A stretch of 64,000 nt of DNA from a virus (taxonomy: Duplodnaviria > Caudoviricetes): the IMG/VR virus record IMGVR_UViG_3300048672_000970, positions 128,001 to 192,000 of that record, one strand, 5' to 3'. The notes beneath the pieces were generated by a model. It was given only the letters and a program-made list of their open reading frames with translations, did not search any database and had not been told where the DNA came from. The translations under genes and the position numbers were made by a program. Each line of letters starts with the position of its first letter. Position 1 is the stretch's first letter. Shown here piece after piece: positions 18,793-51,439 of this stretch.

Positions 18793-18984
18793 ATGAACAA
18801 ACATCTCAAGATTGAACGCCGTATCCGTGAACACACTGACCACTATGGGAAAGCCGGAGAAGTGGAGTGGTTCGTTGTGGACTTAAGTGTCCCTGATTGT
18901 CCGCAGGTCGTTGATGTGTTCAGAAAACGATATCTTGCAAAAGAGCTGATTGACTATCTCAACCGGAGCCTTCCATGCACTTGA
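18793..18984 (+). CDS. hypothetical protein
   Basis: 63-aa ORF. Confidence 0.6.
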   Translation: MNKHLKIERRIREHTDHYGKAGEVEWFVVDLSVPDCPQVVDVFRKRYLAKELIDYLNRSLPCT

Positions 18985-19241: not shown

Positions 19242-19244
19242 AAA

Positions 19245-24121: not shown

Positions 24122-25500
24122 AGTTTTTACAACAACTAGAAGAATCGGTGGCAAAGAACACCATTCTCATCAATGGGAAACGGCATGCCGTTCATAACTC
24201 GAAAGGATTGAAGATTGCTGAATCGGAAGCCGGGCTGAAAAAGTTTTACAAGTGGTTTGGCAATTCAGTAGTTCTTGACTCGAAGCAGCGGCCAATGATT
24301 GTCTATCCGGCTGTCTATGCTGGGGAGAAAAGAAATAAAATCTTCACGACGAAAGAACCATCTTCAGCGACGTTAGTGCATGATACGGACATTACGCTGG
24401 ATGATGCGCACATTTCCGGTAAGACGCCGTTCTATCTGAAAATTGAAAAACTGTTCGATACTCGGCATCCTGAATGCAAGAAGATTTTCGACAAGCATAT
24501 TTTCAAGAAGGTTGATTCGGTAAAAACCCTTGAACATGATTTGCCACGGGCTGAAGATGCAGAAGAAATTGAACAGTTTCTGAATGAGACTTATCCTGAA
24601 TATGACGGAGTAGTTGTTCATGATACGGGTCGATTCGTCAAGTACATTTCGTTCAAGGATAGGAAATCTTCCATTGCCCATGCTGAAAAATGGGATGGGG
24701 AAAAACCTGTCCATGAGGGAACGACTGTTCAAGCCGGATTCAAAACTTATCTGAAAGAAGAAGAACAGAAGAAAGTTGATTCAACCAGTGCGGGGGCAAA
24801 GGATGTTAAAGGTACTTCTGACGTGTCATTCAATCTGATGCGTAATTATATCAATACTTCTGGCCTGTCCGGCGCCTCTATCAAAGATTATCTGGAAAAG
24901 GCCCATGACATCAATGATGAAATTGACACCGTTTGTTATGGTCTGGAAACAGATGATGGACAAGTCGTTAAAGTATATGTCAATGCAGCACAAGCAGACG
25001 ATTTTGAAACGAAGATGGCGGCGATGCTTGGCACGGAAGATAACGTCGAAGACGCCATCAATAACCTTGCGCAAGAGTTTGATATCGTGGATGTCGTCTG
25101 GCCCCGAGATGAAGAAGGAAAAACCGGCTCAACCGACACTACTGATAACGAAGGTGAACCCGATTCAACAGCTCCTACAACTACTCCCGAAACTGACATG
25201 ACGATTGATTCTTCAGCCAGTTTATTCGCCGATGATGAAATTCCACCGGAAGATGCACCAGAGCATGTCGAACCATCATCTACCGAAAATGAACCTGAGA
25301 AATCTGAAAAGACTGAGAAACCGGAAGATGAAAGTTCTACTGAAGACGAACCTGAGCACGAAGACAGTGAAGAACCTGATGGCGAATCAACTGAGAAATC
25401 TGATGATGAAAAAACTGACGATGAAAATGATGAAAGTGAAGATGATGAAAAATCTGATAAAACTAAAAAAGGTGGGAAGACCGCTAAAGTGAAATCTTAA
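24118..25500 (+). CDS. probable head-internal protein: degenerate ADP-ribosyltransferase-like (ART-PolyVal) domain, conserved middle domain and acidic tail
   Basis: MKFLQQLEES leader; FYKWFGNSVVLDSKQRPMIVY...PFYLKIE...YDGVV; D/E-rich C-terminus. Confidence 0.55.
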   Translation: MKFLQQLEESVAKNTILINGKRHAVHNSKGLKIAESEAGLKKFYKWFGNSVVLDSKQRPMIVYPAVYAGEKRNKIFTTKEPSSATLVHDTDITLDDAHISGKTPFYLKIEKLFDTRHPECKKIFDKHIFKKVDSVKTLEHDLPRAEDAEEIEQFLNETYPEYDGVVVHDTGRFVKYISFKDRKSSIAHAEKWDGEKPVHEGTTVQAGFKTYLKEEEQKKVDSTSAGAKDVKGTSDVSFNLMRNYINTSGLSGASIKDYLEKAHDINDEIDTVCYGLETDDGQVVKVYVNAAQADDFETKMAAMLGTEDNVEDAINNLAQEFDIVDVVWPRDEEGKTGSTDTTDNEGEPDSTAPTTTPETDMTIDSSASLFADDEIPPEDAPEHVEPSSTENEPEKSEKTEKPEDESSTEDEPEHEDSEEPDGESTEKSDDEKTDDENDESEDDEKSDKTKKGGKTAKVKS

Positions 25501-37900: not shown

Positions 37901-38868
37901 CCAATAACCAAGTATCAACCGAAATTAACGCATTGACTGGAGAACGAATTGGTAATATCAACTCGAACGGGTTGTTTAGCTGGGATACTTCTTTCCACGA
38001 TAGTTACCTGCCGGTCAATACGCAAATTTCTTTCCTGTACGGAAATACGGGGACGAATGAGATGGTGAAAGTTAACATGACTGAACGCATTCATTTCTTT
38101 GTCGATGCAGGTAATTTGATTACTGATTCATTCAAAGAAGAAACTGTATCAGTCACGATGGTTGAATCGGTAGTGACGAAAGTTAAATCAACGTATGATG
38201 ATGCTTTTTCGGGTATCGTCTTGGATGGTGATTTTAACGGATTCTTGCCCGGCTATTCAAATTTACCATACGATGCTGAACTATTGTCCGGTGTTGGTTA
38301 TTATGACTATGGCTATGCCTTGTCAGAAAATTTCCAGAAGGCGAAAGAGCTGTTAGCAAAGCCGTCCTTGACTCAGGATGAAGAACAGCTTTTACGGGCG
38401 TTAGAAGGGGCTGTGGGCGCGTTTGTTAACGGGACGGTAGCTAACACCACCTTCGCCCAATTCGTCACCAATTTGGACATCATGCTGCCCGCCAGTCAAA
38501 CGCCAAATTTCGGTATTCCGGCGTTAGGTGTTGCGATGGATTTGCAAGACAATCCGGCAGAAACTTCGGCAACTGGTATCAATGAAGCGTTAGTGCTAGT
38601 TGATGGAACGGTGGGCATCATTTACTTGTCGAGTAAAAACGTGACTGGAAATCCATTAGGAATAGCTTATGCGGCAATTGACAGTAACATCGTCATGCCG
38701 ATAGGTGTTACGTCTGTAGAAATAAATTTCACTCAAGACATTGCTTCGCCAGTTTTTTACAAGTGTGAAGTGGGAGGGGTGGTTTCTATTTTGGTTGCGA
38801 CACAGTTAAATTCACGTAAATACTCTTTGAGTGGTGTTGGCTCGAATTGTAAATTATTTGTGGGCTGA
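34966..38868 (+). CDS. large virion structural protein, 1300 aa
   Basis: LIDYINDTKPFRSKL start; repeated F.V.GS.SG..G...F beta-domains shared with the upstream protein. Confidence 0.65.
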   Translation: MSNNTYIQSLIDYINDTKPFRSKLSEVVEEYHFTDVVNAAITDKLVLKEISRPVSKFDYYSNGVPISMQLHPLNLVGDTGWFYGPGQNSAYTVGVSESTELANIPFQYGKKHYTYSSDASIFRQGTLAEEELLENHDFLNVRGSMQFQINQTHNPDGSANPLYTLTDEVNLISDAASQKAGCINFLIALFTYVLNYTQNVSVYSAVNAELHLLLIDLDNNVLPTDFTALQYAFSLISAPDLALIPDFTLTWFNSQLQKSSSGLFTGMYSNEAVKHAASYSFNNYADSVIGISSITVPANTLLEEFSLVAVSPTQFQVYGSDSGFLGSFIAGASFTSAKVSFNTSMVGSPTIGYTVKLTAKNTISIHPDANLETWNIVKINPKNYTRPVVDSDSYGYFTSANGKNTIQFLTETISGMMIFEAQSASTFKIECGSYQSTFSCNTPFNDGVLSFTFVKGSYDYQVGDRFYIEVVNPAPVIRDFGLYFGYDAFGYDGFDANSPAWLKNLNVTNDSRFPAVSSIDVSLSVVPTALSKSYRLVALPDETNPYNILQKDGTTNNKFDITSPDPSISQAVYDAVAFQVNSHVSSTHSPATGTDITLWHVAQFSVQAFENNGWVEKQIANIGDTVSIDGVTLTIPAKPYLATKVFYSQYLTDDVNSLFTETVTNGDMYFFTVDNQPTSIKEWYKSSVNFPHVIIHAKNMGAAIDAKWTITKQSSGFLLAGLYTSGNNAGSQIYAKNLTELSYQDSYLHFTIDAGKIGMQNGDKLEFETHASPFEYAVYGSYSGFTGYAKFNEWFSNGKIGFKLVPPTINLFENNTLITNGISAAGQIGVQGNKVGTYVLKGMGSKWALYLGTQLLGIGVNSIQTTDISVTMPNPTMATVIIQILSPFDFPFGHNSSIVINKLPQTGNVVNLKKTSFDYMQLAFSAPITAVTPLIPESIDLRFIDQVLVSDLTKYNVTSPELYLNRNFIPLDVKRPTYANNQVSTEINALTGERIGNINSNGLFSWDTSFHDSYLPVNTQISFLYGNTGTNEMVKVNMTERIHFFVDAGNLITDSFKEETVSVTMVESVVTKVKSTYDDAFSGIVLDGDFNGFLPGYSNLPYDAELLSGVGYYDYGYALSENFQKAKELLAKPSLTQDEEQLLRALEGAVGAFVNGTVANTTFAQFVTNLDIMLPASQTPNFGIPALGVAMDLQDNPAETSATGINEALVLVDGTVGIIYLSSKNVTGNPLGIAYAAIDSNIVMPIGVTSVEINFTQDIASPVFYKCEVGGVVSILVATQLNSRKYSLSGVGSNCKLFVG

Positions 38869-38891
38869 CCCTAAGTTAAAGGAGTGATGAA

Positions 38892-39287
38892 ATGGCTGAT
38901 CGTAAAGAACTTATCCGTGCAATGATTAATGCACTAATTTTTGACAAGACTGATGAGGCGAAGCCGAATCTGGCGGCGGCGATGACTGAGCATGCCAAGG
39001 AGTTTTATGGCATGGCGCAAGCGGACGTGAAGGAAGCCGTTAATGAAGCTAAAGATCCAGTGGCTGACGTAACTGTATCAGTAGCAAAGCCGTTCGGTTT
39101 TCAAGATGAAACGTCTGAAGAAGTGGCGGAAGAATATGGTGTTGAAGTGAAGGTGATGAAAAGCAAGCTGAAGGTGTCAGGTTCTGCCAAGTCGGTGAAG
39201 AAGTTTCTGAAGGCGGTGGTTTTCGCTGATCTGAAGTCGAAGGAATTTGCCGTGAAGTGCGAGGAAGAATTCCCCGAACTGTGCTAA
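38892..39287 (+). CDS. putative prohead core/head-internal protein
   Basis: SD AAGGAG; charged helical N-terminus reminiscent of T4 prohead core proteins. Confidence 0.45.
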   Translation: MADRKELIRAMINALIFDKTDEAKPNLAAAMTEHAKEFYGMAQADVKEAVNEAKDPVADVTVSVAKPFGFQDETSEEVAEEYGVEVKVMKSKLKVSGSAKSVKKFLKAVVFADLKSKEFAVKCEEEFPELC

Positions 39288-39304
39288 TCTGAAGTCGATG
39301 GAAT

Positions 39305-39342
39305 AAAAGGGTTGGGATGAAAGTCTCAACCCTTTTTGTTTT
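39305..39342 (+). terminator. intrinsic terminator
   Basis: AAAAGGGTTGGGA...TCTCAACCCTTTTT. Confidence 0.8.
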
Positions 39343-39351
39343 GTGAATCAA

Positions 39352-39358
39352 GTAAATA
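39352..39358 (+). promoter_or_regulatory. late promoter (GTAAATA)
   Basis: Heads the 39.4-42.5 kb operon. Confidence 0.6.
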
Positions 39359-39382
39359 ATGGAAATGAACTTAGTGAAATCT

Positions 39383-39910
39383 ATGCCCACTCCCTTACTG
39401 AAAAAATTAGCGCATCAATCCGGCCTGTCACTGAAAGAAGTGGAAGACAAATGGGCTGAAGCTAAACACACCATTCCGATGAATAAGTATTACTGGCCGG
39501 AAGTCGTTTCATTGACAAAAAAGTTGATTGGTCTGAAAGAGAGTATGGAAAATACCTCTTACGAAGAACTACTCGGATTTCTGTTATACGCCAGAAATGT
39601 TGCTCATATTCAGCATTGGAAGACGACCAGTTTTTCTGAACACATGGCACTAAATGATTTATACGATTTGCTGTCAGAAATGACTGATTCACTGGCCGAG
39701 ATGTATATGGGCGTTTATGAGCTTGGCAACATCCCCCAAGCCAGTGCAGATTTTGACACCAAGACTCCTGTTGCATTTGTTACACAATTGATGGTTGACT
39801 TGAAAGAATTTAAGAGTAAACTACCGGATGATGGCTTCATCGTGAACAAGTTTGAAGAACTGCAGGGCGAGATTAGTCAAGTCCTTTACAAGCTGAAGAA
39901 CCTGAAATGA
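39383..39910 (+). CDS. two-domain late protein: small helical N-domain plus ferritin/Dps-like domain
   Basis: MPTPLLKKLA...KWAEAK...YWPEV; then AHIQHWKTTSFSEHMALNDLY...DSLAE...LYKL four-helix metal-binding pattern. Confidence 0.65.
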   Translation: MPTPLLKKLAHQSGLSLKEVEDKWAEAKHTIPMNKYYWPEVVSLTKKLIGLKESMENTSYEELLGFLLYARNVAHIQHWKTTSFSEHMALNDLYDLLSEMTDSLAEMYMGVYELGNIPQASADFDTKTPVAFVTQLMVDLKEFKSKLPDDGFIVNKFEELQGEISQVLYKLKNLK

Positions 39911-40596
39911 AACTGGTAAATTTATTTGAATCCTCTCAGAAGGTTATCTCATGCACCCTTGATGGCGGGTCAATTGATTCCACAAGTATTGAAAATTTCT
40001 TTTCCGTCTGGCATCCGGAATTTGCTAGTAATACATCTTTTCCCCTAGTGTGCAATCAGCAAAAGGCGCCATCTATCTTGACCGGGCAAATTGCGTGCTT
40101 GATTGATACTTTGTGGTTTTGTAGCGGAAAATTAGTCAAATATTATCCACCTTCAGAATGTTCTTTCAAAGATATTGTGTATATTGAAATTGATGGCTTG
40201 GCTGAGGCACTTGATTATATGCGGGTTCATACTGCCATGAACTCGGATGCATTTACTATCAACAGCGGTGCGCCACGCAGCCCCTTGCGCAATTTTGTCG
40301 TTGAGGGTATCAAAGAGGTGGGATATGTCGATCAGGAATATTTGGCAACTTTACTAGCCGCCGAAAAATACGTGAAAGAACATTTCAATGATTCTGATGC
40401 ATATGATGCACTAGAAGATGGTTTCAGTCACGCTGTCAAACTGTTCCCATCCCTTCGAGAACACGGCATGACCCCGCAGGAATTTTATGGCTCGGTCAGT
40501 GTTGGGGGCTGGCGGAAGAATTTTTTAGACCGTATCAAAACTTTCATTCCATATGCTATAACGACCACCATTATTAACGACCAGTCACAGAAGTAA
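39907..40596 (+). CDS. LFES-tagged paralogue 1
   Basis: MKLVNLFES; ...DSDAYDALEDGF...EFYGSVSVGGWRK. Confidence 0.75.
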   Translation: MKLVNLFESSQKVISCTLDGGSIDSTSIENFFSVWHPEFASNTSFPLVCNQQKAPSILTGQIACLIDTLWFCSGKLVKYYPPSECSFKDIVYIEIDGLAEALDYMRVHTAMNSDAFTINSGAPRSPLRNFVVEGIKEVGYVDQEYLATLLAAEKYVKEHFNDSDAYDALEDGFSHAVKLFPSLREHGMTPQEFYGSVSVGGWRKNFLDRIKTFIPYAITTTIINDQSQK

Positions 40597-40608
40597 AAGG
40601 AAATATAT

Positions 40609-41250
40609 ATGAAACTGGAATCTTTATTTGAATCGGCTGCATCTTCTATCGACTTGCTCGATTACTGTTATCGGACAGAAGCAGGTACTCTTGCTTGGCT
40701 GGGTAAGGATGGAAATCCGGAAGGCGACATTGACACTTATAGTCAAGGGTACAGGTTCCTTGATAGCAGTAATCCGATTACGGATATGTCAATGTGGGTG
40801 CATATTTTTTATAACAACCCGACAGAACGGATTGGCGGTCAAATAGTGAAGCTTTTTTCCGCACCAACCGTAGGCAAAGGCATTCTGATTTTTGATGATT
40901 CTGCCAAAACCATTAAATCGGTTGAAATGGGTAGATTGGACTCACCGGCTAGCAAAGAGTATGACGCAAAATGGAAAATCGCCAGGGCGGCGCCGCACTT
41001 GAATAACCCGCGTGATGCGAGTCATGTAAAAGAAATGGCTAATTTGCTCGAAGAAGATGATGAATACCGTGACGCGATTGATGCATATTTTGTTGAAATG
41101 CTGCGCGTAGTTGAAGGGTTGGAACTACCGCGATTTGTCATGTATGGAAATAAAAGCGTGAGTGCTATCCGCAAAATATATGAACAGCGGAAGCTTGGTG
41201 ATACTGTACCGTCGATGGTGGCGTACAACAAAGTAATGCAAGGGAAATGA
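40609..41250 (+). CDS. LFES-tagged paralogue 2
   Basis: MKLESLFES; EDDEYRDAIDAYF...VMYGNKSVSAIRK. Confidence 0.8.
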   Translation: MKLESLFESAASSIDLLDYCYRTEAGTLAWLGKDGNPEGDIDTYSQGYRFLDSSNPITDMSMWVHIFYNNPTERIGGQIVKLFSAPTVGKGILIFDDSAKTIKSVEMGRLDSPASKEYDAKWKIARAAPHLNNPRDASHVKEMANLLEEDDEYRDAIDAYFVEMLRVVEGLELPRFVMYGNKSVSAIRKIYEQRKLGDTVPSMVAYNKVMQGK

Positions 41251-41251
41251 T

Positions 41252-41905
41252 ATGAAACTGGAATCTTTATTTGAATCGGTGGCAGTGGATTTGCTCGATT
41301 ACCTTCTACCCGATGCGGACGGTCATGGTGGGTATGGATGTATTGTTTCAAAACTTTCAAATGTGGTTACTCGCGTCAAGCGGGGATGGTATTCTAATGG
41401 ATGGCAATCTTACAATTATATGCAACCGAAACTATATGGCGAACCTTTTCTTGTCCCATCTTCTCAAGGAATTGCAGGTCAAATGGCATTACTGCTGGTT
41501 TTAGACTGCCATGCTGTTATAGACGTTGTTGATGAAAAACAGCATGAGCTGACGGTTATTAAAACGGAAAAACTGGCAGATATTTTTGAAAAGATGCTAG
41601 CACGAGTTGAGGTGTTAGCACATGAATATATACAAACATCACCTTCCCAGCAATTTCCCGAAAGCACATTCAAACAAATCCTTGAAGATGATGAAGTATT
41701 CAACGATTTCATAGATGCGTTTTTTGCAGAAGCCACTAGACTGATTAATACTACCACACTTTCATATGGGATGAAGTACGGGAAAAATACACCAGCTTCC
41801 ACCAAGAAATTATTCAAAAAGTATTGCATTGAAACCCACACTGCGATCGCTTTTGCTGCCGCGAACCAATCTCAAGAAGTATCAGACGAGGATTACGAGG
41901 AATAA
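41252..41905 (+). CDS. LFES-tagged paralogue 3
   Basis: MKLESLFES; DDEVFNDFIDAFF...MKYGKNTPASTKK. Confidence 0.8.
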   Translation: MKLESLFESVAVDLLDYLLPDADGHGGYGCIVSKLSNVVTRVKRGWYSNGWQSYNYMQPKLYGEPFLVPSSQGIAGQMALLLVLDCHAVIDVVDEKQHELTVIKTEKLADIFEKMLARVEVLAHEYIQTSPSQQFPESTFKQILEDDEVFNDFIDAFFAEATRLINTTTLSYGMKYGKNTPASTKKLFKKYCIETHTAIAFAAANQSQEVSDEDYEE

Positions 41906-41906
41906 T

Positions 41907-42554
41907 ATGAAACTTAATACTATTTTAGAATCTTCAAGCAAGATTGACCTGCTTGATTATACAGACCGTAAATATGCTAACGGGCCGGTTAAATGGATAG
42001 ACGCTTTGCGTCCTTTGCACGACCAAATTAGCCGGGACGTTACCAACGGATTATACGATGGAATAGACGCAGTTCGTTCCATTGCGGGTGGGTTTATAGC
42101 ATATAACCCAGACAGTTTATCAGTTGGTGGGTTTGTTGCGATTTTGTTCAGTTTCGGATTCCGGGACATCCAAGTATTTAACATGGGTGATAAAACCGCC
42201 ACAGTACGAAACATGCCACATCTTGCGAAAACACTTTCGCATTTAGGTGAAGTAAGTCGTAAAATCGGTGAAAATCATTCAGAATTAACAGACGAGAACG
42301 ATACCACCCAATATAAAAAGATGGTAGAGTATCTGAAAAATGATGATGAGTATCAAGATGCGCTTGATGCGAGTTTCGCCGCCATCATGGATTTCGCCAG
42401 AAGTTTAGAACTACCACATTTCGTCATGTTTGGAAATAAATCGGTGGGGGCCATTAGAAAACTATTTGACAGGTACGGGATTGAAGACCGGGCCAAACAT
42501 CTGATTGGGAATAATAAATTTTACCAGCAGACTGTTGTTGAATGGGATAGCTGA
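41907..42554 (+). CDS. ILES-tagged paralogue 4
   Basis: MKLNTILES after SD GAGGA; NDDEYQDALDASF...VMFGNKSVGAIRK. Confidence 0.8.
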   Translation: MKLNTILESSSKIDLLDYTDRKYANGPVKWIDALRPLHDQISRDVTNGLYDGIDAVRSIAGGFIAYNPDSLSVGGFVAILFSFGFRDIQVFNMGDKTATVRNMPHLAKTLSHLGEVSRKIGENHSELTDENDTTQYKKMVEYLKNDDEYQDALDASFAAIMDFARSLELPHFVMFGNKSVGAIRKLFDRYGIEDRAKHLIGNNKFYQQTVVEWDS

Positions 42555-42626
42555 GTTGAAGCAGCCCCTTCAAAAACCCGCTGAACAAATGGAAGCTTAA
42601 TTTTGTAACAAAGTGTAAAAGGTTTC

Positions 42627-42655
42627 TTGACTGGCTTGCTACCAGTCGTTATACT
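42627..42655 (+). promoter_or_regulatory. near-consensus sigma70 promoter TTGACT-N17-TATACT with AT-rich upstream tract
   Basis: Exact 17-bp spacer; precedes ORF 42686. Confidence 0.85.
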
Positions 42656-42685
42656 CTACCCATACCAATTTACTGAGAGAAAAAC

Positions 42686-43294
42686 ATGGCTGTTCATCTG
42701 TTTCGCACTTTCGCTGCTGACCTTGACAAAGAGACTGGTAATCCGTTCGGCGAGTTTCATAATTTTGTCCGCGCGCAAACCGCCACACCCGAATATGATC
42801 ACCGTAATATATACACGCTGTATCCCAGCGCGATGGTGGCCGAACCGTTGTATGGGCAAGTGTTCGCGCTCGTGAATGGATACGGTTCGCCGATTTTGCG
42901 CATTGGTACGTCATTTGAAGAAGCAACTCAGTTGTTTCCCGGACTGAGTGACGCTGTTAAGAAAGTGTGCGATCTGAAGTCTGCTCTCACAGCCCAACTG
43001 ACGGTGGAACAAGAAAATGTACCCGAGTTCAAGGAATGGAAACACCTCAGTGCTTGGGATTATAACGAGCCGCGCCCTGCTAATTTGATCACTATTGTCC
43101 AAGCCCATATGGCTGACGATGAGGAATACCTCGACACGATTGATGCATTTTGTACTGCCGCCATTCGTCTCACACAGGTATCTGACGTGCTGACGTTCCA
43201 AGAATGGTTTGATAACGCATCTGTTGGTCAGGCGCGCAAAACTCTTGAAAAATATTTCATGGGTAAATTCTTCTTCAATTCGTGGGTGATTTAA
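42686..43294 (+). CDS. untagged paralogue 5 (sigma70-driven)
   Basis: ADDEEYLDTIDAFC...EWFDNASVGQARK; no LFES leader. Confidence 0.75.
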   Translation: MAVHLFRTFAADLDKETGNPFGEFHNFVRAQTATPEYDHRNIYTLYPSAMVAEPLYGQVFALVNGYGSPILRIGTSFEEATQLFPGLSDAVKKVCDLKSALTAQLTVEQENVPEFKEWKHLSAWDYNEPRPANLITIVQAHMADDEEYLDTIDAFCTAAIRLTQVSDVLTFQEWFDNASVGQARKTLEKYFMGKFFFNSWVI

Positions 43295-43296
43295 TC

Positions 43297-43881
43297 ATGC
43301 TCATCGAATTGTTTGAGCGCCTTGCTACCAATACGGCTTCAGCAGAAGATTGGGCAGCATTTGAAGTAGAGAAATGCCTAAGAGTTGTTTTTGATGCAGA
43401 TAATCTATCGCAAGGGATTATTTTTTATTTCAACACTTCAAAACACTTCACGCATTCTGGGCAGGTGGTATTTTTCCCATTAGTATCACCACTAATAGCT
43501 GTTCACGATGCAGACGCAGGATTTGGAAACATGCCGAAATTTTCAGCCGGAGCTATTTCGGGCATCATCCAATGCAGGGGAACGATGGATGAAATATGCA
43601 AGAACGAAATAGCTAAACTAGATAACCGAGATGAATCTACCCAACCTAACTATACCCGTCTCGCCAGTGAGTTAAAATCGTGTGAACAGTATGAAGAACT
43701 GGTTGAATCAATGTGCGCTAAAATCATTGCGTTTACCAGACAGCCACACGTTCCATTAACCCATGATGAATGGTTTGGCGGCGCGAGTATTGCCCACATC
43801 CGCACTCTCCTTCATAAATTTCTTTTCAGTGAATACTACCTGAGAAATCGGGTACAAAAGTTCCACACCAAATCATTGTGA
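43297..43881 (+). CDS. paralogue 6 (MLIELFER leader)
   Basis: SCEQYEELVESMC...EWFGGASIAHIRT. Confidence 0.7.
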   Translation: MLIELFERLATNTASAEDWAAFEVEKCLRVVFDADNLSQGIIFYFNTSKHFTHSGQVVFFPLVSPLIAVHDADAGFGNMPKFSAGAISGIIQCRGTMDEICKNEIAKLDNRDESTQPNYTRLASELKSCEQYEELVESMCAKIIAFTRQPHVPLTHDEWFGGASIAHIRTLLHKFLFSEYYLRNRVQKFHTKSL

Positions 43882-43912
43882 TACAATGAGCTTTCTTGTA
43901 TCTTTTTGAAAG
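43879..43912 (+). promoter_or_regulatory. extended -10 promoter/leader cassette, copy 1 of a 34-nt direct repeat
   Basis: TGATACAATGAGCTTTCTTGTATCTTTTTGAAAG; two mismatches to 44563-44596. Confidence 0.7.
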
Positions 43913-43919
43913 AGGTAAT

Positions 43920-44549
43920 ATGCACCAACGTAAATTAAATTTACTTGATATGGTTAAACTACCCTCAACCCCTTTTATTAAGCCGCCGTGGTATGATTCG
44001 CTGAAAGCGGTGAGCGCGCGAATTGAAGCCGCGCTGCCACCCCCATTAAAATATGATGCATGGGTTGAGTGCAATTGGTTCATCCCAATCAACGATAGGG
44101 ATGCATCTGTAACTGGATTTATAGTTTTATTTTTCCTTAACGTCTATCACCTCCCCGACGACCCGGCGACGAAGATCGCGGTGTATGACATGGATACTTT
44201 ATCGCGTCGGGTCATCAAATTGACTCCATTAGAAGCAGCGATAAACGCTATACAATTATCTACGCAGAAAATAGTAGATGATTGTATATCAGATGCGTCA
44301 AACTACAAAGAACGTGCTGAAGCCATTGAAAATGTAAAGAATGTTTTGCAAGAAAACGATGCATATAATGATGCCATTGACACTTACTTTCGTGAAATAC
44401 TTTATTTGTGTAGAGTTAATGACCTCCCGTATAACGTGATGTATGGAGATAAAAACATCGCGGACGTTAGAAAAGCATTCTTTTTCCATATGTTTGAAAC
44501 GTTCGCTGCAGATTTGGTTGATATTCATGGTCTTTACCAAGCAGCCTAA
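43920..44549 (+). CDS. untagged paralogue 7
   Basis: ATG 43920 after GAGG; ENDAYNDAIDTYF...VMYGDKNIADVRK. Confidence 0.75.
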   Translation: MHQRKLNLLDMVKLPSTPFIKPPWYDSLKAVSARIEAALPPPLKYDAWVECNWFIPINDRDASVTGFIVLFFLNVYHLPDDPATKIAVYDMDTLSRRVIKLTPLEAAINAIQLSTQKIVDDCISDASNYKERAEAIENVKNVLQENDAYNDAIDTYFREILYLCRVNDLPYNVMYGDKNIADVRKAFFFHMFETFAADLVDIHGLYQAA

Positions 44550-44562
44550 CGCGACCTTAACA

Positions 44563-44596
44563 TGATACAATGAGCTTTCTCGTAACTTTTTGAAAG
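44563..44596 (+). promoter_or_regulatory. extended -10 promoter/leader cassette, copy 2
   Basis: TGATACAATGAGCTTTCTCGTAACTTTTTGAAAG before the M16 gene. Confidence 0.7.
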
Positions 44597-44604
44597 GACT
44601 ACAC

Positions 44605-45927
44605 ATGGCAACTCTATCCATTATTCATCCGCGCTACCATAACATCGAATACTCTGTTATGGATTTGCCCGGAACAAACTTCTTCAAGTTTGAAATCCAT
44701 TCTGAAATGGGTGCTCATATTGAACGGTCTTATCCAAAGACGTTACCGGAACATGAAACCAAGAACATTTATGGCATTTCTCATTTGATTGAGCATATGT
44801 CGTTCAAGAGTCCGGCTGATTACACGACCGACGGGCTGATGGCTAATCTGAAACGGTATGGCACTTATAACGCCTGGACAAACTTTGAAGAAGTGGCTTA
44901 TTACTTTGAAACACTCGCCGACCGAGAAAATGTCATGTGGGCGATTAGTATGGTGTTTAACATCGCTTTCAATGATTTGAGCAAAGTTACTCAAGAAGAA
45001 TTTGAAACTGAACGAAATGTCGTCTATAACGAAATCAAACGTTATCATGATGATGCCCAAACTATGTTCAGTTTCAGGTTTTCACCTAATATCTATGGCA
45101 ACAATGAATTTGACGACATTCTCGGCGACCCGGAAACCCTCATCAAATTCGACCTTGAAACTTTGCAAGAAGTGAAGCGCATCTTTATTAACGAAGCGCC
45201 GCTGACGATGACCATCACCTATGATTCTACACGTATGAATCTGGATGATATTTTCAGCATGATTGACGCTGAACGGGAAAAACTGAACCCAATGCATCCG
45301 AAGCTGGAGTACACGTATGACATGTACCTAGAAGGCATCAAATCGGTCGAATGGGACTACCGGATTAAGCAGGTGGCTTCAGATGCTTCCCAGCACCTTT
45401 ACATGGCTGCTATCCGCGTTCCTGTGCCTGAGATGTCAGTTCTAGCCCGCGCATGCGCTTCTTACATCGGACAATCTGCCCATAACGAAAGTTTGAACGA
45501 AATCATTCGTGAACAGCATGGCCTCACCTATGGCATTTCATTCAGTGTTGAAGAAATGACAAATAAAGAACTGGCGATGGTTTTCTCATGCGATGTCGAA
45601 CCTCAGAATGCTGATTTACTCGACACTCTGTTTGTTGATACTCTCCGGGCAGTAGTTGAAAATCTGACTGAAGAAAAATTCAACAACTATAAAGAAACTT
45701 TGCTGCTGAAAGATACGATGGCTCTTTTGAACCAACGTGCGCTGATGAATCTACACAACTGGCCTAATAATTGCACTGATTTTGGCAAGTATGAAGAACT
45801 GTTCAAGGAAGATGGCATGAAGGGGCGGGAGAAGGTTTTTGCCGAAGTGTTGACTTATCCTAAATTCCTGAGTTACTGCCAACGAGTAGTTGCGGGGATG
45901 GATAGTATGATTCGCATTCACACTTAA
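44605..45927 (+). CDS. M16 (insulinase/pitrilysin) family zinc metallopeptidase
   Basis: GISHLIEHMSF (HxxEH), YNAWT, ERNVVYNEI; C-terminal EIIREQHGLTYG. Confidence 0.9.
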   Translation: MATLSIIHPRYHNIEYSVMDLPGTNFFKFEIHSEMGAHIERSYPKTLPEHETKNIYGISHLIEHMSFKSPADYTTDGLMANLKRYGTYNAWTNFEEVAYYFETLADRENVMWAISMVFNIAFNDLSKVTQEEFETERNVVYNEIKRYHDDAQTMFSFRFSPNIYGNNEFDDILGDPETLIKFDLETLQEVKRIFINEAPLTMTITYDSTRMNLDDIFSMIDAEREKLNPMHPKLEYTYDMYLEGIKSVEWDYRIKQVASDASQHLYMAAIRVPVPEMSVLARACASYIGQSAHNESLNEIIREQHGLTYGISFSVEEMTNKELAMVFSCDVEPQNADLLDTLFVDTLRAVVENLTEEKFNNYKETLLLKDTMALLNQRALMNLHNWPNNCTDFGKYEELFKEDGMKGREKVFAEVLTYPKFLSYCQRVVAGMDSMIRIHT

Positions 45928-45928
45928 C

Positions 45929-45954
45929 AAAGGGGCTTCGGCCCTTTACTTTTT
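45929..45954 (+). terminator. intrinsic terminator
   Basis: AAAGGGGC-TTCG-GCCCTTT. Confidence 0.8.
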
Positions 45955-45961
45955 GTAAATA
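45955..45961 (+). promoter_or_regulatory. late promoter (GTAAATA)
   Basis: 17 nt before ATG 45979; restarts the tagged run after the peptidase. Confidence 0.65.
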
Positions 45962-45978
45962 CTGATTTGGACAAGTCT

Positions 45979-47223
45979 ATGAAACTATCACATTTATTTG
46001 AATCTACATCCGGGGGAACTGATTGGTCAGAATGCTGGAAAAATCCGACTGGAAATGATGTTTCATCGTTGATATCGAGCGAATTTGTATTATCAAAAGA
46101 TGAAGGGTTCCTAGGTCTGCTGTTTGCGCATGTGCAAGATTTGGTGATTAAATTCGATTCGCAGCGAACCATCAACGGCTGGTCTACGGATACAGTATCA
46201 CTGAATTCTATTTGCTATGATGGCTCGGATATGGGGCACTTTCTATTCACTCAAACGGAAACACTTAAAGGGCTCTACCAACAAAATAAAGAAATTACGG
46301 ATGAAGAATCGGCAGAAGATTTCCAAGACAAAGTGGAAGACTTTGCCGGCAAAATTATCAAGCATCGAATTGAAATTGCCGCAAAGTTATTTGGTATGAC
46401 GCAGAAACAGTTGTTCGGTAGTTTACCTTCCACCACGGGTGGTCTGTCAAGGAAACTGATGGAAATGTTCCTGATGCTCCGTGAGCATAAACAGGTGTTA
46501 GTTCATGAGTCAGATGAACTGAAAGTGTATAAAATCATGCCAGGACACGCTAAAATCGTAACAAATATCGTTGAAAAGAAATTTGGCGATAACGTATCTT
46601 TCTCTTGGTACGATTTCCGGTCAGAGTTTGGATTTGGCATCTGCATCAATCAGGGTGACGCTGTTCATACTTATGATTTGAGTAAATCTGAATACATCAC
46701 TTACACTAAATTCTATACCGTACAGATAAATCACAAACCCAAAATCATGCGTGGTCAATATCAATTCAAAACGGTGGCTGATTTGAAAAAGTTCGATAGT
46801 GTCCATTGTGAACATGTTGTTGACTTTGCCAAATCTATCAAATCCGATTTCAAGCTGACTGAATTTGGTCATCCACGCGGACCAAGTGTATTTCTAGGTC
46901 TTGTACCGGACAGTGCCTTCAGCGACTATATCAAACGAATTAGTATTAAGATGGAATCTTACACGCTTTCCAGACTTGAAGAACTTGAAGAAAGCCAAGG
47001 GTTCAAATTTGATGACATTAACAAAATTGCTGAGTTCTTCGCCGACCGATCACGTAAAACTAAATTACTGACCGCCATCAAATCGGTCATCAAATCGGGT
47101 AATACTGGAATGTTTGAAAAGGGGCTGAAATCCTTTATGACAGAGCTTGCAGCAAAGCAAGGTTTTTCTGCGCATGACCTATCATCCGTCAACCACTATA
47201 TCAATACGTGTTTCGGCTATTAA
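45979..47223 (+). CDS. LFES-tagged paralogue 8 (extended C-terminus)
   Basis: MKLSHLFES; EDFQDKVEDFA...QLFGSL. Confidence 0.75.
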   Translation: MKLSHLFESTSGGTDWSECWKNPTGNDVSSLISSEFVLSKDEGFLGLLFAHVQDLVIKFDSQRTINGWSTDTVSLNSICYDGSDMGHFLFTQTETLKGLYQQNKEITDEESAEDFQDKVEDFAGKIIKHRIEIAAKLFGMTQKQLFGSLPSTTGGLSRKLMEMFLMLREHKQVLVHESDELKVYKIMPGHAKIVTNIVEKKFGDNVSFSWYDFRSEFGFGICINQGDAVHTYDLSKSEYITYTKFYTVQINHKPKIMRGQYQFKTVADLKKFDSVHCEHVVDFAKSIKSDFKLTEFGHPRGPSVFLGLVPDSAFSDYIKRISIKMESYTLSRLEELEESQGFKFDDINKIAEFFADRSRKTKLLTAIKSVIKSGNTGMFEKGLKSFMTELAAKQGFSAHDLSSVNHYINTCFGY

Positions 47224-47230
47224 GGAATAT

Positions 47231-47926
47231 ATGAAACTGACCAACATATTTGAATCTTCCACCCCTTCTGCAATCGATTTTATTGAAAAGTTCAATAGCG
47301 TCTACAAAGGGAAATCGGTACCAGGGCTGCATACCATGTTCTACGGACTATCTCATAATCCATTACAGTGGGGGAATATGCGAATTGATAGATATACCAT
47401 CCTGTACGATAGTTCATCCCGTGACCAACGACTTTCGCCAGTGCTTAAAGAGCATCTTCCATCGGGGCATCATATTATCACTGGACATCTGTATGGATTG
47501 TTTGAGGCGGTATGTTTCGGCAGCGCGCAGCTTAATAATGCTGCTGCATTCATCGATTTAAGTAAATCAAATCACATTACAGATATTCCACTTTCAAAAT
47601 TACATAATGTCTTGTCGGCGCTAGCCCGCCAAATGATAGTCACCCTGGATGAAATGCGAAATGAAGGCATGCACCCGGATATGGATGATTTGCTTGCTGA
47701 TGAAGAAGTGAGTGACTGCCTTGATGAAGTGATTGACGTATCAGAGCAAATCTGCCACAATGCCATTGTGAAACTTGGCATTCCGATGCAAGTAATGTTA
47801 GGTGAATACCGACCAATGCAAATTGGCAAATTAGTCAGAGATTATTTCAAATATTGCGGGATGATTGATTTGGAAGAAGACGCTGATGCCGCCGATGATA
47901 GCGGCGAGTGGGAACCGGAGGATTAA
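47231..47926 (+). CDS. IFES-tagged paralogue 9
   Basis: MKLTNIFES after SD AAGGA; ADEEVSDCLDEV...VMLGEYRPMQIGK. Confidence 0.75.
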   Translation: MKLTNIFESSTPSAIDFIEKFNSVYKGKSVPGLHTMFYGLSHNPLQWGNMRIDRYTILYDSSSRDQRLSPVLKEHLPSGHHIITGHLYGLFEAVCFGSAQLNNAAAFIDLSKSNHITDIPLSKLHNVLSALARQMIVTLDEMRNEGMHPDMDDLLADEEVSDCLDEVIDVSEQICHNAIVKLGIPMQVMLGEYRPMQIGKLVRDYFKYCGMIDLEEDADAADDSGEWEPED

Positions 47927-48322
47927 ATGAATGTGCATACCATTGCTGATAACTTACCTTGCAATTTGATTGACATTGCCAATCAATGTAAAAGTTCGGC
48001 TGAGTTTTCGGCAGTGAATGAGCATTTCAATTTGTTATCATCTGGAGGCGACATTAAAGTCCTTCCAGATGATTTCAGATTCTCAGGTATTCTGGCTCTG
48101 ATGTCTACTCGCAAATTTCAGAATAGTAACCCTTCGTTAAGTATCAGTCGGCAATTGGATAAAGATACTGAAGAAGCGGTTGATACATGGCGAGAAAATT
48201 TGACCGAGTATTTTATGCGAATGAAGCGGCTCGGGTTCACTCATACTCAGTTGTTCGGAAATCTGTCGGCAGTTGATTTCAAATACTGGCTGAAAAAACA
48301 ACAAACGCGCAGCATGCCATAA
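47927..48322 (+). CDS. short untagged paralogue 10
   Basis: DKDTEEAVDTW...QLFGNLSAVDFK. Confidence 0.6.
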   Translation: MNVHTIADNLPCNLIDIANQCKSSAEFSAVNEHFNLLSSGGDIKVLPDDFRFSGILALMSTRKFQNSNPSLSISRQLDKDTEEAVDTWRENLTEYFMRMKRLGFTHTQLFGNLSAVDFKYWLKKQQTRSMP

Positions 48323-48344
48323 AAACTGATTTACTGGATACACA

Positions 48345-49364
48345 ATGAAACTTACTTCACTATTTGAATCGGCAGGTAAAAATTGGGCGGATGCTCATCT
48401 TGAACCTGTATTGGCGGATGGCATCAAGCAAGGCGATAAAATAACTTTCGATACTGCCACCGACACTGGTTTGATTTATCTGATTGTCAAGTCTTTTGGC
48501 GATTTTCAAGCTGTTTACATTGATGACGCCCTGCTGATGGACATTCCAGAGTATGAAAACTTCTTAACAGAACATAACGAGTTTGATGAATTCTTCACGT
48601 TCAGGCATTTCTCTGGTTCAGATGAGGATGATGAACTGATTGAAAATGCTGCTACCGATTTGCTCAAACTGGCGCGGCGATTGCAAGATGCTATAAACCT
48701 TCCACGAGGAAAATATTTTGGTAATTTAGCTCAAACTGTTGGCGCGATTGAGAAATTACTCCGGGCTGCAATCGTGCAGTATCAGAAAGGTGTCACACTG
48801 AAAGTGCAGCATGCCGAAGATGAAAAAATGCATGTTGAACTGTTCAAAGACGGCGACGGGCAGTTACGACCTAGACTGATGTCCCTCTGTGGATTCTCGG
48901 AGGAACAAGCATCAACGGCAGTTAGATTGCTTCGCACTAGATATTTCGTTTCAGCCCGGTCGTGCAACCTGCTAGTGATTAAGGAAAATATCCCTTACTT
49001 TATTATGCTGGGTGGAGTAGCAGCGACTATAGATGTTGTCAGATTGGATGCATCATCTGAGCAAACTACTTTTGAGTTCTCTGCGGAGAACTATCCCGGT
49101 CTTGATAAAATGTTCCCAGGTATCACCACTACTATCAAGAATCTGACTAAAAATGGAGAGTACATAAATAATTACCTGTATTTTGAACATACTACCTTTA
49201 ATCATTTCCCGATGGTGTTCCTACATGGCGATGTTCTCTCCAGACTGATTATAAATCGTAGCATTGATTTGGAAAAACTTAAAGTTGCCATTCCAAAAGC
49301 GTATACGCAGGGTGATAAAATCTTCCCGCTGCAAAGGGTGATAAAATCTTCCCGCTGCTGCTAA
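48345..49364 (+). CDS. LFES-tagged paralogue 11 (extended; C-terminus altered by a duplication)
   Basis: MKLTSLFES; DEDDELIENAA...KYFGNLAQTVGAIEK. Confidence 0.75.
   Translation: MKLTSLFESAGKNWADAHLEPVLADGIKQGDKITFDTATDTGLIYLIVKSFGDFQAVYIDDALLMDIPEYENFLTEHNEFDEFFTFRHFSGSDEDDELIENAATDLLKLARRLQDAINLPRGKYFGNLAQTVGAIEKLLRAAIVQYQKGVTLKVQHAEDEKMHVELFKDGDGQLRPRLMSLCGFSEEQASTAVRLLRTRYFVSARSCNLLVIKENIPYFIMLGGVAATIDVVRLDASSEQTTFEFSAENYPGLDKMFPGITTTIKNLTKNGEYINNYLYFEHTTFNHFPMVFLHGDVLSRLIINRSIDLEKLKVAIPKAYTQGDKIFPLQRVIKSSRCC
49309..49358 (+). repeat. 26-nt-period tandem duplication causing a frameshift
   Basis: AGGGTGATAAAATCTTCCCGCTGC at 49309 and 49335. Confidence 0.95.
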
Positions 49365-49442: not shown

Positions 49443-49480
49443 AATGGAGGTTGATAAATACTTGTCAACCTCCATTTTTC
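49443..49480 (+). promoter_or_regulatory. 12-bp hairpin with TAAATA in its loop, followed by a T-tract
   Basis: AATGGAGGTTGA-taaatacttg-TCAACCTCCATT-TTTC. Confidence 0.65.
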
Positions 49481-49483
49481 CAT

Positions 49484-51439
49484 TTGGCTCGAAACGAACA
49501 AATCAAGCGCGCAGGTACTGAATGTGAATATACACCTGAGCAAGTGCAAGAGTTGCGCAAGTGTATTACAGACCCTATCTATTTCATTACCAACTATGTC
49601 AAGGTATCACACCCCACTAAAGGGCTAGTACCTTTCGCCCTATACGAATACCAAGAGCGACTGATTAGGCATTTGCACTCAAGTAGATTCTCGATTCTAA
49701 ATCTACCTAGACAACAAGGTAAAACAATCACATCAGCCATTTATCTATTCTGGAAGTCACAGTTTACCAGTAATGGCACATTTCTCATCGCATCAAAAAA
49801 CGAATCTCACGCGAAAGAGATTGCAGCCAGAATTCGAGTCGCATATGAAAATTTACCAAATTGGCTGAAAGCGGGTGTCAAACTGTATAACATGCACATG
49901 ATGGAATTTGACAATGGTTCAAAAATTATCTGTGAAGCAACTACCGATAAAACCGGGCGCGGGCTTGCTATCACTTGTGTAAGTGGTGATACTGAAATCA
50001 CCACTCGGCCAAAAGACTGCCCAGAATATCTGCAAGCTGGAACTACCATTCAAATCTCGCAACTGGCGTTAGGTAACTTTCCAGATACAGACCAGCTAAA
50101 AATTGACATAGCTGAATTAGAAATTCTAACACCATCTGGTTTTGAATCTTTTGATGGCATCGTCATCACGCCTGACAAGCCGTTACTTGAAATACAATTC
50201 AATGATGGGTCACATCTGAAATGCACCCCTAATCATTTACTTTTAGTTGATGGTGTATTCAAATCGGCTGACCTGCTAACGCCCGAAGAAAATGTTAACG
50301 GATTATATGTAATCAGCATTACTCAACTACCTGGACTACATCCGGTCTACGATTTGATAAACGTTGCTGACCACCATACTTACAAAACAAATAACGTCTA
50401 TAGCCATAATTGCATCTATCTTGATGAGCTTGCATTCATCAGTAAAACCATTCAGCAAGAGATGTGGACTTCGTTACAACCGGCTATCTCGACTGGTGGG
50501 TCAATCATTATTTCTTCTACACCTAACGGAGATACCGACCTTTTCGCTAATCTGTGGCGTGGCGCTCCAGAAAATGATTTCATGCCATTTTCTACTCATT
50601 GGAGTGACCATCCAGATAGAGGGCCAGAGTATTATGATCTGATGCTCAAACAGCTCGGCCCGGTTAAAGTCCGTCAAGAAGTTGATTGCGAATTTCTATC
50701 ATCAGACGCATTGCTTATCAATTCAATCGCACTCAATAACATCCGTTCAGTAAAACCTACTTTCACTTCGTTAGGGTTCGATTTCTGGATTCCTGACAAT
50801 TCAGTGAAGGGTGAAGGGACGACTTACCTTATCACTCTCGACCCGTCTACCGGTTCATTACAAGATTCATCAGTTATTGAAGTATTTGAATTCCCTTCGT
50901 TGAATCAGGTGGCTGAACTACACCTAGATGATGTTAACATCCCTTTAATCTATTCTAAACTGAAATGGATTATCAAGTATTTTGCTGTCAATGGGGCAAA
51001 TGTGTTATGGACGTTTGAACGTAATGGAATTGGCGAAGCAGTTGGCGCATTACATTTCAATGACGAGAACTTTGAGTTCCCTGGCTCTGATAACGTCTCA
51101 ATCGTCTCAGATTTGGACAAGATTGGTTTATTCACTACCCCGGCTAAAAAAATTACGTTCTGTTTGCAATTGAAACAGTTGGTCGAACAAATGAACGGAT
51201 TGAACATCCGTTCAGATTATCTGTTGAAAGAACTGAAAAACTTTGTCGCTGCTGGTGGAACCTATAAAGGAAAATCTGGATATCATGATGATGCCGTGAT
51301 GGCAACTGTCCTGACGATGCGATTGCTAAAATATTTGGCAGAGTACGATGAAGCTGCATTCAACCAAGTGAACACTTACATTGATGAGGAAGCAAGTATT
51401 GACGATTCGGATGCGTGCGTTCCATTCATGATTAGTTAA
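49484..51439 (+). CDS. terL: terminase large subunit (T4 gp17-like), intein-containing; start uncertain (TTG 49451 or 49484)
   Basis: DPIYFI, LYEYQ, Walker A PRQQGKT, Walker B IYLDE, coupling SSTPNG, nuclease TLDPS and HDDAVMA. Confidence 0.95.
   Translation: MARNEQIKRAGTECEYTPEQVQELRKCITDPIYFITNYVKVSHPTKGLVPFALYEYQERLIRHLHSSRFSILNLPRQQGKTITSAIYLFWKSQFTSNGTFLIASKNESHAKEIAARIRVAYENLPNWLKAGVKLYNMHMMEFDNGSKIICEATTDKTGRGLAITCVSGDTEITTRPKDCPEYLQAGTTIQISQLALGNFPDTDQLKIDIAELEILTPSGFESFDGIVITPDKPLLEIQFNDGSHLKCTPNHLLLVDGVFKSADLLTPEENVNGLYVISITQLPGLHPVYDLINVADHHTYKTNNVYSHNCIYLDELAFISKTIQQEMWTSLQPAISTGGSIIISSTPNGDTDLFANLWRGAPENDFMPFSTHWSDHPDRGPEYYDLMLKQLGPVKVRQEVDCEFLSSDALLINSIALNNIRSVKPTFTSLGFDFWIPDNSVKGEGTTYLITLDPSTGSLQDSSVIEVFEFPSLNQVAELHLDDVNIPLIYSKLKWIIKYFAVNGANVLWTFERNGIGEAVGALHFNDENFEFPGSDNVSIVSDLDKIGLFTTPAKKITFCLQLKQLVEQMNGLNIRSDYLLKELKNFVAAGGTYKGKSGYHDDAVMATVLTMRLLKYLAEYDEAAFNQVNTYIDEEASIDDSDACVPFMIS
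49976..50410 (+). mobile_element. mini-intein (145 aa, no homing endonuclease) in TerL
   Basis: Begins CVSGDT; block B LKCTPNH; block F VYDLINV; ends NNVYSHN followed by Cys+1. Confidence 0.92.

Follow-up and report, generated by a model that had tools for sequence, protein, structure and literature searches.

The window analyzed here is a 64,000-nucleotide stretch of DNA, bases 128001-192000 of the 200,363-bp contig IMGVR_UViG_3300048672_000970, and derives from an uncultured freshwater jumbo phage of T4-like affiliation. At positions 39907-49364 it contains a run of 12 co-directional genes (Table 1): eleven array genes, lettered A to K in the order in which they occur, and a gene for an M16 peptidase between G and H. 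Most of the array proteins begin with the same short peptide, of the form MKLxxLFES; this N-terminal tag, the proteins that carry it, and their possible destination inside the phage head are the subject of the present analysis. The large terminase encoded beyond the array is of T4 type; its nearest cultured relative is found in the Ralstonia jumbo phage RsoM2USA (41% identity), and the next best are those of the PA5oct group and Xoo-sp13. On its other side, the array comes after the genes for two virion proteins of 2738 and 1300 amino acids, the larger of which has tail-fibre-like PHROG matches.

The tag is confined to gene starts. The leader pattern, formulated as the regular expression M[KL][LFI]x(1-3)[LI][FL]E[SR] and run on all six frames of the whole contig, matched eight times, always on the plus strand, always within the 9.5-kb array stretch, and always at the first codon of a long open reading frame; seven of these matches read MKLxx(L/I)(F/L)ES (A, B, C, D, H, I, and K), and the eighth, that of F, is degenerate. 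Their sequences are those of the leaders listed in an earlier note on this DNA, and the 29 identical nucleotides that the note had seen at 40608 and 41251, where B and C begin, were also recovered. The DNA 5′ of the leader ATG codons is not conserved, and synonymous codons vary at Leu3, Leu6, and Ser9, so that it is the leader peptide itself on which selection acts. Mean identity is 72% over leader residues 1-9, compared to 23% over the remaining protein. In all seven strict leaders, residues 6-8 read L-F-E, I-L-E, or I-F-E, and hence follow the (L/I)-x-E pattern. A second tag class, MxxF(K/R)xFLxE, closely resembles the T4 capsid targeting sequence, MKTYQEFIAE (PMC8442874); it has five six-frame matches in the contig, all of them N-terminal and all outside the window (contig bases 94527, 104782, 117237, 117570, and 118108; loci L005-L008). 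The four carriers of this second class that were compared (L005-L008) were mutually dissimilar once the leader had been removed, and one of them is a GNAT acetyltransferase. A looser pattern, N-terminal hydrophobic-hydrophobic-x-Glu, was weakly enriched (Fisher P 0.096) and was dropped for these two specific tag classes.

Beyond the tag, the array proteins form a family of their own. Proteins B to G matched each other significantly in all pairs (phmmer), and a profile run on approximately 940 open reading frames brought in A (E 5e-4) as well as I (E 3e-3); the significant core family thus comprises eight genes, A-G and I. K was marginal against the core profile (E 0.01-0.06; hhalign P 0.0024), and neither H nor J was significant when compared with it directly. 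A tagged 445-residue protein of a second contig, G003, was matched by both H (phmmer E 4e-8) and K (E 1e-6) over approximately 150 residues, and since both match this protein, H and K are regarded as genuine “long” members; J has a weak phmmer match (E 0.0096) to a G003 protein that is also hit by the family profile. The earlier note had counted about eleven paralogues with a common motif and had proposed a profile of that motif as a check. The count stands for the eight core genes, including A and I as significant additions to B-G, and extends to H and K by way of G003, but J belongs only weakly, K is marginal and H and J go undetected by the profile itself, and one gene inside the stretch, which that note leaves unmentioned, encodes the M16 peptidase.

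The motif shared by the family, DDEYxDAxDxF...L(P/T)xxxW/YGxxSxxxxRK, lies in its C-module. A confident AlphaFold2 model of B, based on a 16-sequence alignment (predicted local distance difference test score, pLDDT, 79.7; predicted template modelling score, pTM, 0.76), has disordered residues 1-9, a beta-rich and variable domain at residues 13-106, and a helical domain at residues 108-212 that is predicted with pLDDT >90 and bears the motif. This model fits the earlier suggestion of a constant scaffold combined with a variable region, and alignment confirmed that the N-terminal halves are highly divergent. For K, an 8-sequence alignment yielded a model with a pLDDT of only 43. The family has no named counterpart, and the earlier note had not recognized its domain either: scans of the array members against Pfam and PHROG gave no match, and a Pfam scan of 10 members did not return PF12699, the inner-body family A of phiKZ and SPN3US; no relative of the array or of member B turned up among 50,697 phage records by megablast or tblastn. 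The B model had no fold match in PDB, BFVD, and AlphaFold DB clusters (Foldseek) or in the ESM Atlas, and a VIA-align comparison with 48,000 chains yielded just generic helical-bundle matches (Z <=7); ESM Atlas look-ups for H and K produced nothing usable. By these scans of the members and the fold searches with B, no likeness to T4 IPI, IPII, or IPIII was found in sequence or fold.

When 1.84 billion cluster representatives were searched with the family profile, five foreign proteins were returned, all of them encoded on a single 11.6-kb Logan contig, L001; IMG/VR scans that were anchored on the M16 gene, the 1300-residue protein, and the terminase gave no relatives. L001 is syntenic with the window and carries genes for the 1300-residue virion protein, a 131-residue protein, a DUF5856 protein, nine paralogues, the M16 peptidase, and an H-like protein. 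The flanking genes are 69-93% identical between window and L001, compared to 29-37% for the best array pairs; array counterparts do not exceed 37% identity, their synonymous sites are saturated, and BLAST did not match H to the gene in the corresponding position. H and K in the window, and l10 and l2 in L001, are tagged but resemble the core family scarcely or not at all. As judged from this pair of contigs, the array is a hyperplastic, fast-diversifying region, in agreement with the diversifying set that the earlier note had proposed, and its rapid turnover points to changing host targets for the variable domain.

The tag itself is portable and occurs on proteins outside the family. In a scan of the back-translated leader pattern across IMG/VR, the bulk of the matches were single, as by chance; five contigs had 2-8 in-frame matches at consecutive gene starts. 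On four of these five contigs, which belong to related jumbo phages, the tagged genes form tandem arrays of leucine-rich-repeat proteins (Pfam LRR_4), all starting with MKLKQLFES and none matched by the family profile; one such array adjoins a terminase gene, and another (contig G004) is interspersed with sheath- and baseplate-sized genes. MKLxxLFES was seen at the start of this family, of the leucine-rich-repeat arrays, and of further proteins, on no fewer than six contigs. Starts of a related type were seen on two contigs of more distant relatives that were found via the DUF5856 gene at approximately 42% identity (L014 and L015). Both have a variable interval between DUF5856 and terminase (L014 10001-15807; L015 10001-13156), and genes in this interval start with MKIHELIVE, MKISELLIE (of the form MKIxELLxE), or MKVNELLEG; in L015, the starts MKLQDLFEAR and MLLQHLFESD occur 5′ of DUF5856, and none of the tagged proteins of these two contigs is matched by the family profile. 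Since 2 to 8 unrelated small genes are found between DUF5856 and terminase, the interval is a lineage-wide plastic insertion site.

On contig G003 (48 kb), tagged genes are located within a T4-type head-assembly module (loci L135-L137, bases 36690-46983). Genes for a portal protein (Portal_T4), a prohead protease (Peptidase_S77), four proteins with the leader MKL(Q/R/H)(H/Q/N)L(F/I)ES, a scaffold protein (T4_CASP), and a capsid protein (Gp23) lie on one strand; a fifth tagged gene, which encodes the 445-residue protein, is found on the opposite strand between portal and protease. After the first 12 residues had been trimmed, the family profile still matched all four tagged genes of the main strand, in the columns of the C-module (E 3e-4 to 6e-3 among 62 proteins); going by these matches, the array family occurs within this head module. 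The G003 scaffold contains 13 [LI]xE sites where 4.9 are expected (z 4.1), compared to z ~0 for the family members; a scaffold that is broken up and tagged proteins that receive a single cut would produce this pattern. In the G003 capsid protein, two L-M-E sites immediately precede the Gp23 domain. Within the tagged “long” subfamily, an 8-sequence alignment of H, K, l10, and five G003 proteins, Glu8 is invariant.

The tagged genes of the window also have a promoter type in common. The hexamer TAAATA, which resembles the T4 late promoter, TATAAATA, has 72 copies in the contig and is found within 60 nucleotides upstream of 41 of its 246 genes, compared to approximately 2.4 expected; its position is nearly always -21 to -33, the genes so equipped include those of the 2738-residue, the 1300-residue, and other giant virion proteins, and examples in the window start at 26681, 34930, 39353, 45956, and 49455. 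TAAATA is probably the late promoter of this phage. In both loci, window and L001, strict MKLxxLFE leaders are confined to TAAATA units; in the window these are the operon DUF5856-A-B-C-D and, headed by a TAAATA box that follows a terminator, the operon H-I-J-K. E-F, G, and the M16 gene stand behind sigma-70-like promoters, with an extended -10 in the case of G and M16; promoters of this type likewise precede the untagged or degenerate members of L001. L001 has the layout TAAATA, DUF5856-l1-l2-l3, terminator, sigma-70-like promoters in the mid-section and 5′ of M16, terminator, and TAAATA followed by l10; its E-like gene, l6, is preceded by TTGACA, 17 nucleotides, and TACACT. On the strength of these promoters, we infer that the tagged genes are expressed late. 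The approximately 40-nucleotide element that precedes G and M16 (GATACAATGAGCTTTCT..CTTTTTGAAAG) has only two copies in 200 kb and looks like a duplicated cassette of promoter and 5′ untranslated region. An apparent LFER leader of G was rejected as an artefact of reading a TTG within the promoter-like element, and ATG 43920 is the likelier start.

Table 1. Genes and regulatory features of the tagged array and its borders (window coordinates, unless another contig is named).
Feature	Position	Strand	Observations
TAAATA late-promoter-like box	39353..39358	+	30 nucleotides 5′ of ATG 39383; heads operon DUF5856-A-B-C-D
DUF5856 (Dps/ferritin-like) gene	39359..39910	+	Pfam PF19174, E 1e-16; phrog_858; opens late operon; true start likely ATG 39383
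A, 229 amino acids, leader MKLVNLFES	39907..40596	+	C-module ~40378-40524; profile E 5e-4
B, 213 amino acids, leader MKLESLFES	40609..41250	+	C-module 41041-41184; modelled member
C, 217 amino acids, leader MKLESLFES	41252..41905	+	29 identical nucleotides with B at start
D, 215 amino acids, leader MKLNTILES	41907..42554	+	phmmer and leader pattern
Sigma-70-like promoter, TTGACT, 17 nucleotides, TATACT	42627..42655	+	within 131-nucleotide gap 5′ of E
E, 202 amino acids, N-terminus MAVHLFRTF	42686..43294	+	phmmer; 29% identical to L001 counterpart l6
F, 194 amino acids, degenerate leader MLIELFER	43297..43881	+	phmmer and leader pattern
~40-nucleotide element with extended -10 (TGnTACAAT)	43880..43919	+	5′ of G; second copy 44564-44604, 5′ of M16
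G, 209 amino acids, without leader	43920..44549	+	ATG 43920 preferred as start
M16 (insulinase-type) zinc peptidase, 440 amino acids	44605..45927	+	not a family member; PF00675, PF05193; HLIEH at residues 60-64
Terminator-like hairpin	45930..45947	+	3′ of M16; followed by TAAATA 45956-45961, 23 nucleotides 5′ of H
H, 414 amino acids, leader MKLSHLFES, “long” subfamily	45979..47223	+	opens late operon H-I-J-K
I, 231 amino acids, leader MKLTNIFES	47231..47926	+	profile E 3e-3
J, 131 amino acids, without leader	47927..48322	+	weak membership; hhalign P 0.042 on motif columns; phmmer E 0.0096 to G003 protein
K, 339 amino acids, leader MKLTSLFES, “long” subfamily	48345..49364	+	motif 48621-48764, then 200-residue extension
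TAAATA box and T4-type large terminase gene	49455..51439	+	box 49455-49460; array boundary; start likely TTG 49484
Leucine-rich-repeat arrays, 4 to 8 or more proteins	L047 9048-14492; L058 7053-11145; L042 5364-10368; L054 8644-11455		IMG/VR

In light of these contexts, the array proteins may well be lineage-specific head-internal proteins of a T4-like jumbo phage, equipped with a tag that resembles a capsid targeting sequence and would be removed by an S77 protease after L-F-E. Each protein would combine a disordered nine-residue tag, a beta-rich domain that evolves fast, and a helical module that is conserved and bears the family motif. Tagged copies would be produced late from TAAATA promoters; the tag would bind the scaffolding core and thereby bring the proteins into the prohead, where the gp21-type (S77) prohead protease would cut it off after L-F-E; the mature proteins would remain in the head with the DNA, and would then enter the host on infection. 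The untagged proteins E, G, and J, and F with its degenerate leader, would be made inside the cell instead. The sequences themselves show that the tag is confined to gene starts and moves between protein families, and they show the family, its hypervariability, and its genomic contexts; late timing, packaging, cleavage, ejection, and function of the array proteins are inferred from these, and for function an anti-defence activity is the leading guess, a tentative one and the least-supported step of the scheme; it draws on the hypervariability of the array and on the analogy with T4 IPI and P1 Dar.

The general principle is already known from T-even internal proteins, from the head paralogues of SPN3US and phiKZ, and from the P1 DarB signal. 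T-even internal proteins are diverse and have the capsid targeting sequence alone in common (PMC3012670). The array resembles them in its N-terminal tag of approximately 10 residues ending in (L/I)-x-E (MKLxxLFE vs. MKTYQEFIAE), in the occurrence of this tag on otherwise dissimilar proteins, in the strong gene-content divergence between close relatives, and, by its TAAATA boxes, in probable late expression; on contig G003, its lineage also has a T4-type S77 protease, scaffold, and Gp23. The two differ in that the array proteins have no sequence or fold similarity to T4 internal proteins, which are basic, with a mature IPI* of 76 residues (PMC3012670), whereas the array proteins are acidic and approximately 200-400 residues long; furthermore, the array is a true tandem paralogue family with a conserved helical module and includes untagged and apparently early paralogues. 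SPN3US and phiKZ possess two families of head paralogues, family A (PF12699, inner-body) and family B with 20 members, and the first 15 residues of the SPN3US paralogues gp53 and gp54, which include protease motifs, are identical (PMC5694885). These head or ejection families of jumbo phages are likewise tandem and numerically plastic, yet they belong to another lineage, in which the protease is of S80 type and the motif reads A/S/G-x-E, and were detected in virions. In phage P1, an N-terminal packaging signal of DarB suffices for head loading, and packaged Dar proteins counter host restriction (PMC9024508); by analogy, an N-terminal signal would here load cargo protein into the head, although in P1 more than 9 and up to 30 residues make up the signal, which loads a single 250-kDa protein, with no array and no homology.

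Several observations weigh against head packaging, and they qualify the earlier note’s description of the leader as capsid-targeting-like, a description that is supported by the tag on non-homologous proteins, the G003 head module, the L-F-E residues, and the late-type operons. Three or four members are untagged, as E, G, and J have no leader and that of F is degenerate; the N-terminus of E, MAVHLFRTF, has no Glu and therefore lacks the cleavage motif. Glu is also missing from some copies in tagged position, such as l1 (MKIESLFGA) and some leucine-rich-repeat copies with LFG or LFD, and cleavage therefore cannot be universal. In B, C, and D, conservation continues past the tag and includes (I/V)DLLDY, an element belonging to the fold, so that ordinary paralogy accounts for part of their N-terminal identity. 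The (L/I)-x-E rule is derived from T4 and not from this lineage; the array proteins are acidic (isoelectric point 4.7-6.8), whereas T4 IPI-III are basic; and the array has in its midst a gene for a peptidase of the M16 family, to which presequence peptidases also belong. Finally, no genes for a gp23-type capsid, a gp20-type portal, or an S77/S78 protease were found on the 200,363-bp contig, an absence that is indecisive because the contig is only 56% complete (CheckV); the head module of this phage probably sits in the missing part of the genome.

Retention of some tagged copies despite the missing Glu would also be accounted for if the tag were an uncleaved docking peptide, by which interchangeable binding modules, the array family and the leucine-rich-repeat proteins, are fixed externally on the virion, at its tail, baseplate, or capsid surface, and serve as adhesin-like accessories instead of internal proteins. 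Leucine-rich repeats are modules for binding, the tagged repeat genes of G004 are mixed with sheath- and baseplate-sized genes, and the array of the window comes after the 2738-residue protein with its tail-fibre-like PHROG matches and the 1300-residue virion protein; it is to the leucine-rich-repeat arrays that external docking would especially apply. However, a disordered stretch of nine residues would make a short anchor for stable attachment, and the Glu8 that is invariant in the eight tagged “long” proteins stands exactly at the expected S77 cut. The tagged genes of G003 lie between protease and scaffold, away from tail genes, and the conserved part of the protein body is C-terminal or central, whereas receptor-binding proteins keep the N-terminus constant and vary the C-terminus. 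External docking is unlikely on this evidence, though less so for the leucine-rich-repeat arrays.

Similarly improbable are ordinary late proteins without a place in the virion, whose shared N-terminus would serve translation initiation, a cytoplasmic partner, or degradation, and would resemble the capsid targeting sequence by coincidence. Short amphipathic N-termini are indeed common, and the acidic array proteins are unlike T4 internal proteins; but one and the same peptide, always with L/I-x-E at its end, is found at the start of unrelated families on different contigs, codon variation speaks against a signal at the mRNA level, tagged genes occur in the G003 head module, and the presence of the tag tracks the late-type promoter in two loci. 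The same G003 position, between protease and scaffold, and the same acidity, which is characteristic of scaffolds, would suit prohead core or scaffold-type assembly proteins, comparable to T4 gp67, gp68, and gp22, that are degraded and expelled in maturation. This is highly improbable: [LI]xE sites are not enriched in the family (z ~0), in contrast to the G003 scaffold (z 4.1), rapid turnover of copy number and sequence between close relatives is unusual for assembly parts, and the model of B predicts a folded two-domain protein.

The M16 peptidase of the array is a regular member of its family: both Pfam M16 domains exceed their cut-offs (PF00675, 51.8 bits, E 1e-13, cut-off 22.3; PF05193, 29.6 bits, E 7e-7, cut-off 23), and the zinc motif HxxEH is intact (HLIEH). 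Its L001 copy occupies the same position and is 80% identical; other large phage-like contigs commonly encode relatives (33-41% identity), there with unrelated neighbouring genes, and the neighbourhoods of two such homologues in other huge phage contigs, when inspected, contained no arrays of this kind. No M16 gene was found on the five other tag-bearing contigs, all of which are fragments. M16 enzymes include presequence and leader peptidases, and the occurrence of an intact one within the array in both window and L001 would be expected if the array proteins were cytoplasmic pro-proteins whose leader is removed or recognized by this enzyme, with no role in virion assembly, but this is the least probable of the alternatives, given homologues that are common elsewhere without an array in the two neighbourhoods inspected, tag-bearing contigs (fragments) without an M16 gene, a sigma-70-like promoter and a terminator that set the peptidase gene apart from the tagged late operons, and G003 genes that adjoin an S77 protease instead.

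The genes that border the array merit separate comment. The N-terminal 58 amino acids of the DUF5856 protein (window 39383-39556) are 34% identical (BLASTP E 2e-10) to a 75-residue protein of RsoM2USA, which is encoded between protease and scaffold in the head module of that phage (L016:2375-2602); the Dps-like DUF5856 protein may itself be connected with the prohead. At the other border (window 49443-49560), the listed terminase start, TTG 49451, falls within a 15-bp hairpin whose loop region contains the TAAATA box; the start is probably TTG 49484, since the N-termini of relatives read MA(K/T)N...EYTPE. This terminase is approximately 140 amino acids longer than the versions of its relatives, and tblastn breaks it into two pieces; an intein is therefore probable. 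Further upstream, a very acidic protein of 460 amino acids (isoelectric point 4.6; 107 Asp+Glu) is encoded at 24118-25500, after a gene for a 722-residue protein that bears a TAAATA box; it begins with MKFLQQLEES (L-E-E), as the earlier note had reported for position 24118, and has no Pfam match. This protein may be a further tagged cargo.

Among cultured phages, RsoM2USA and PA5oct have the nearest terminases, and each encodes an S77 protease. The region surrounding the terminase gene of PA5oct contains no leaders. RsoM2USA carries, near its terminase gene, tandem paralogues of approximately 200 amino acids (ORF274-279/280; L013 27611-31280, with another cluster at 16580-19721); six of these tandem paralogues share a C-terminal VFEFQD, and N-termini read MKLSEI, MKLDEI, MKLREI, MRFKKWLSE, and MSFKQWLKE, while a neighbouring gene starts with MNQTFKQFLTE. 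These tandem genes with MKLSEI-type starts, in a phage with an S77 protease and a terminase of 41% identity, resemble the array; they differ from it in the VFEFQD family of the protein body, which is not matched by the array profile, and at the position of the G003 tagged genes RsoM2USA has just two genes, for proteins of 104 and 75 amino acids. The published virion analysis of RsoM2USA covers the 10 most abundant bands only (PMC8504454). ORF257, a reported virion protein, is located in the leader-rich cluster; its published mass of 17.57 kDa, compared to 19.65 kDa calculated, is unusable as processing evidence, as the paper is silent on the origin of the figure. RsoM2USA is a good test system for the tags.

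What appears new, as judged from the sequences and the model of B, is the tag sequence, a protein family with an unmatched predicted fold, an uncultured lineage, the recurrence of the tag in leucine-rich-repeat arrays, and the apparent division into tagged late and untagged early copies. In a wider and more speculative version, which is possible but doubtful, MKLxxLFES would be a lineage-wide, portable head-loading tag in an uncultured group of T4-like jumbo phages, marking a large and modular packaged proteome, consisting of the new-fold family, the leucine-rich-repeat arrays, and other proteins; tagged late copies would be pre-loaded for the next infection, and untagged early copies, from host-type promoters, would serve the current one. 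The tag idea is open to direct test in the cultured relatives RsoM2USA and XacN1, and tagged and untagged paralogues behind different promoter types would provide a built-in natural control. If the array proteins are loaded into the head, the capsid-targeting principle of T4 would also hold in a distant lineage, there with another tag and a new protein fold, and the array would represent candidate host-interaction or anti-defence proteins that are delivered with the phage; the nine-residue tag might also serve to load cargo into large capsids. If the tag is indeed a head-loading signal, the injected proteins of uncultured jumbo phages would become predictable from sequence alone.

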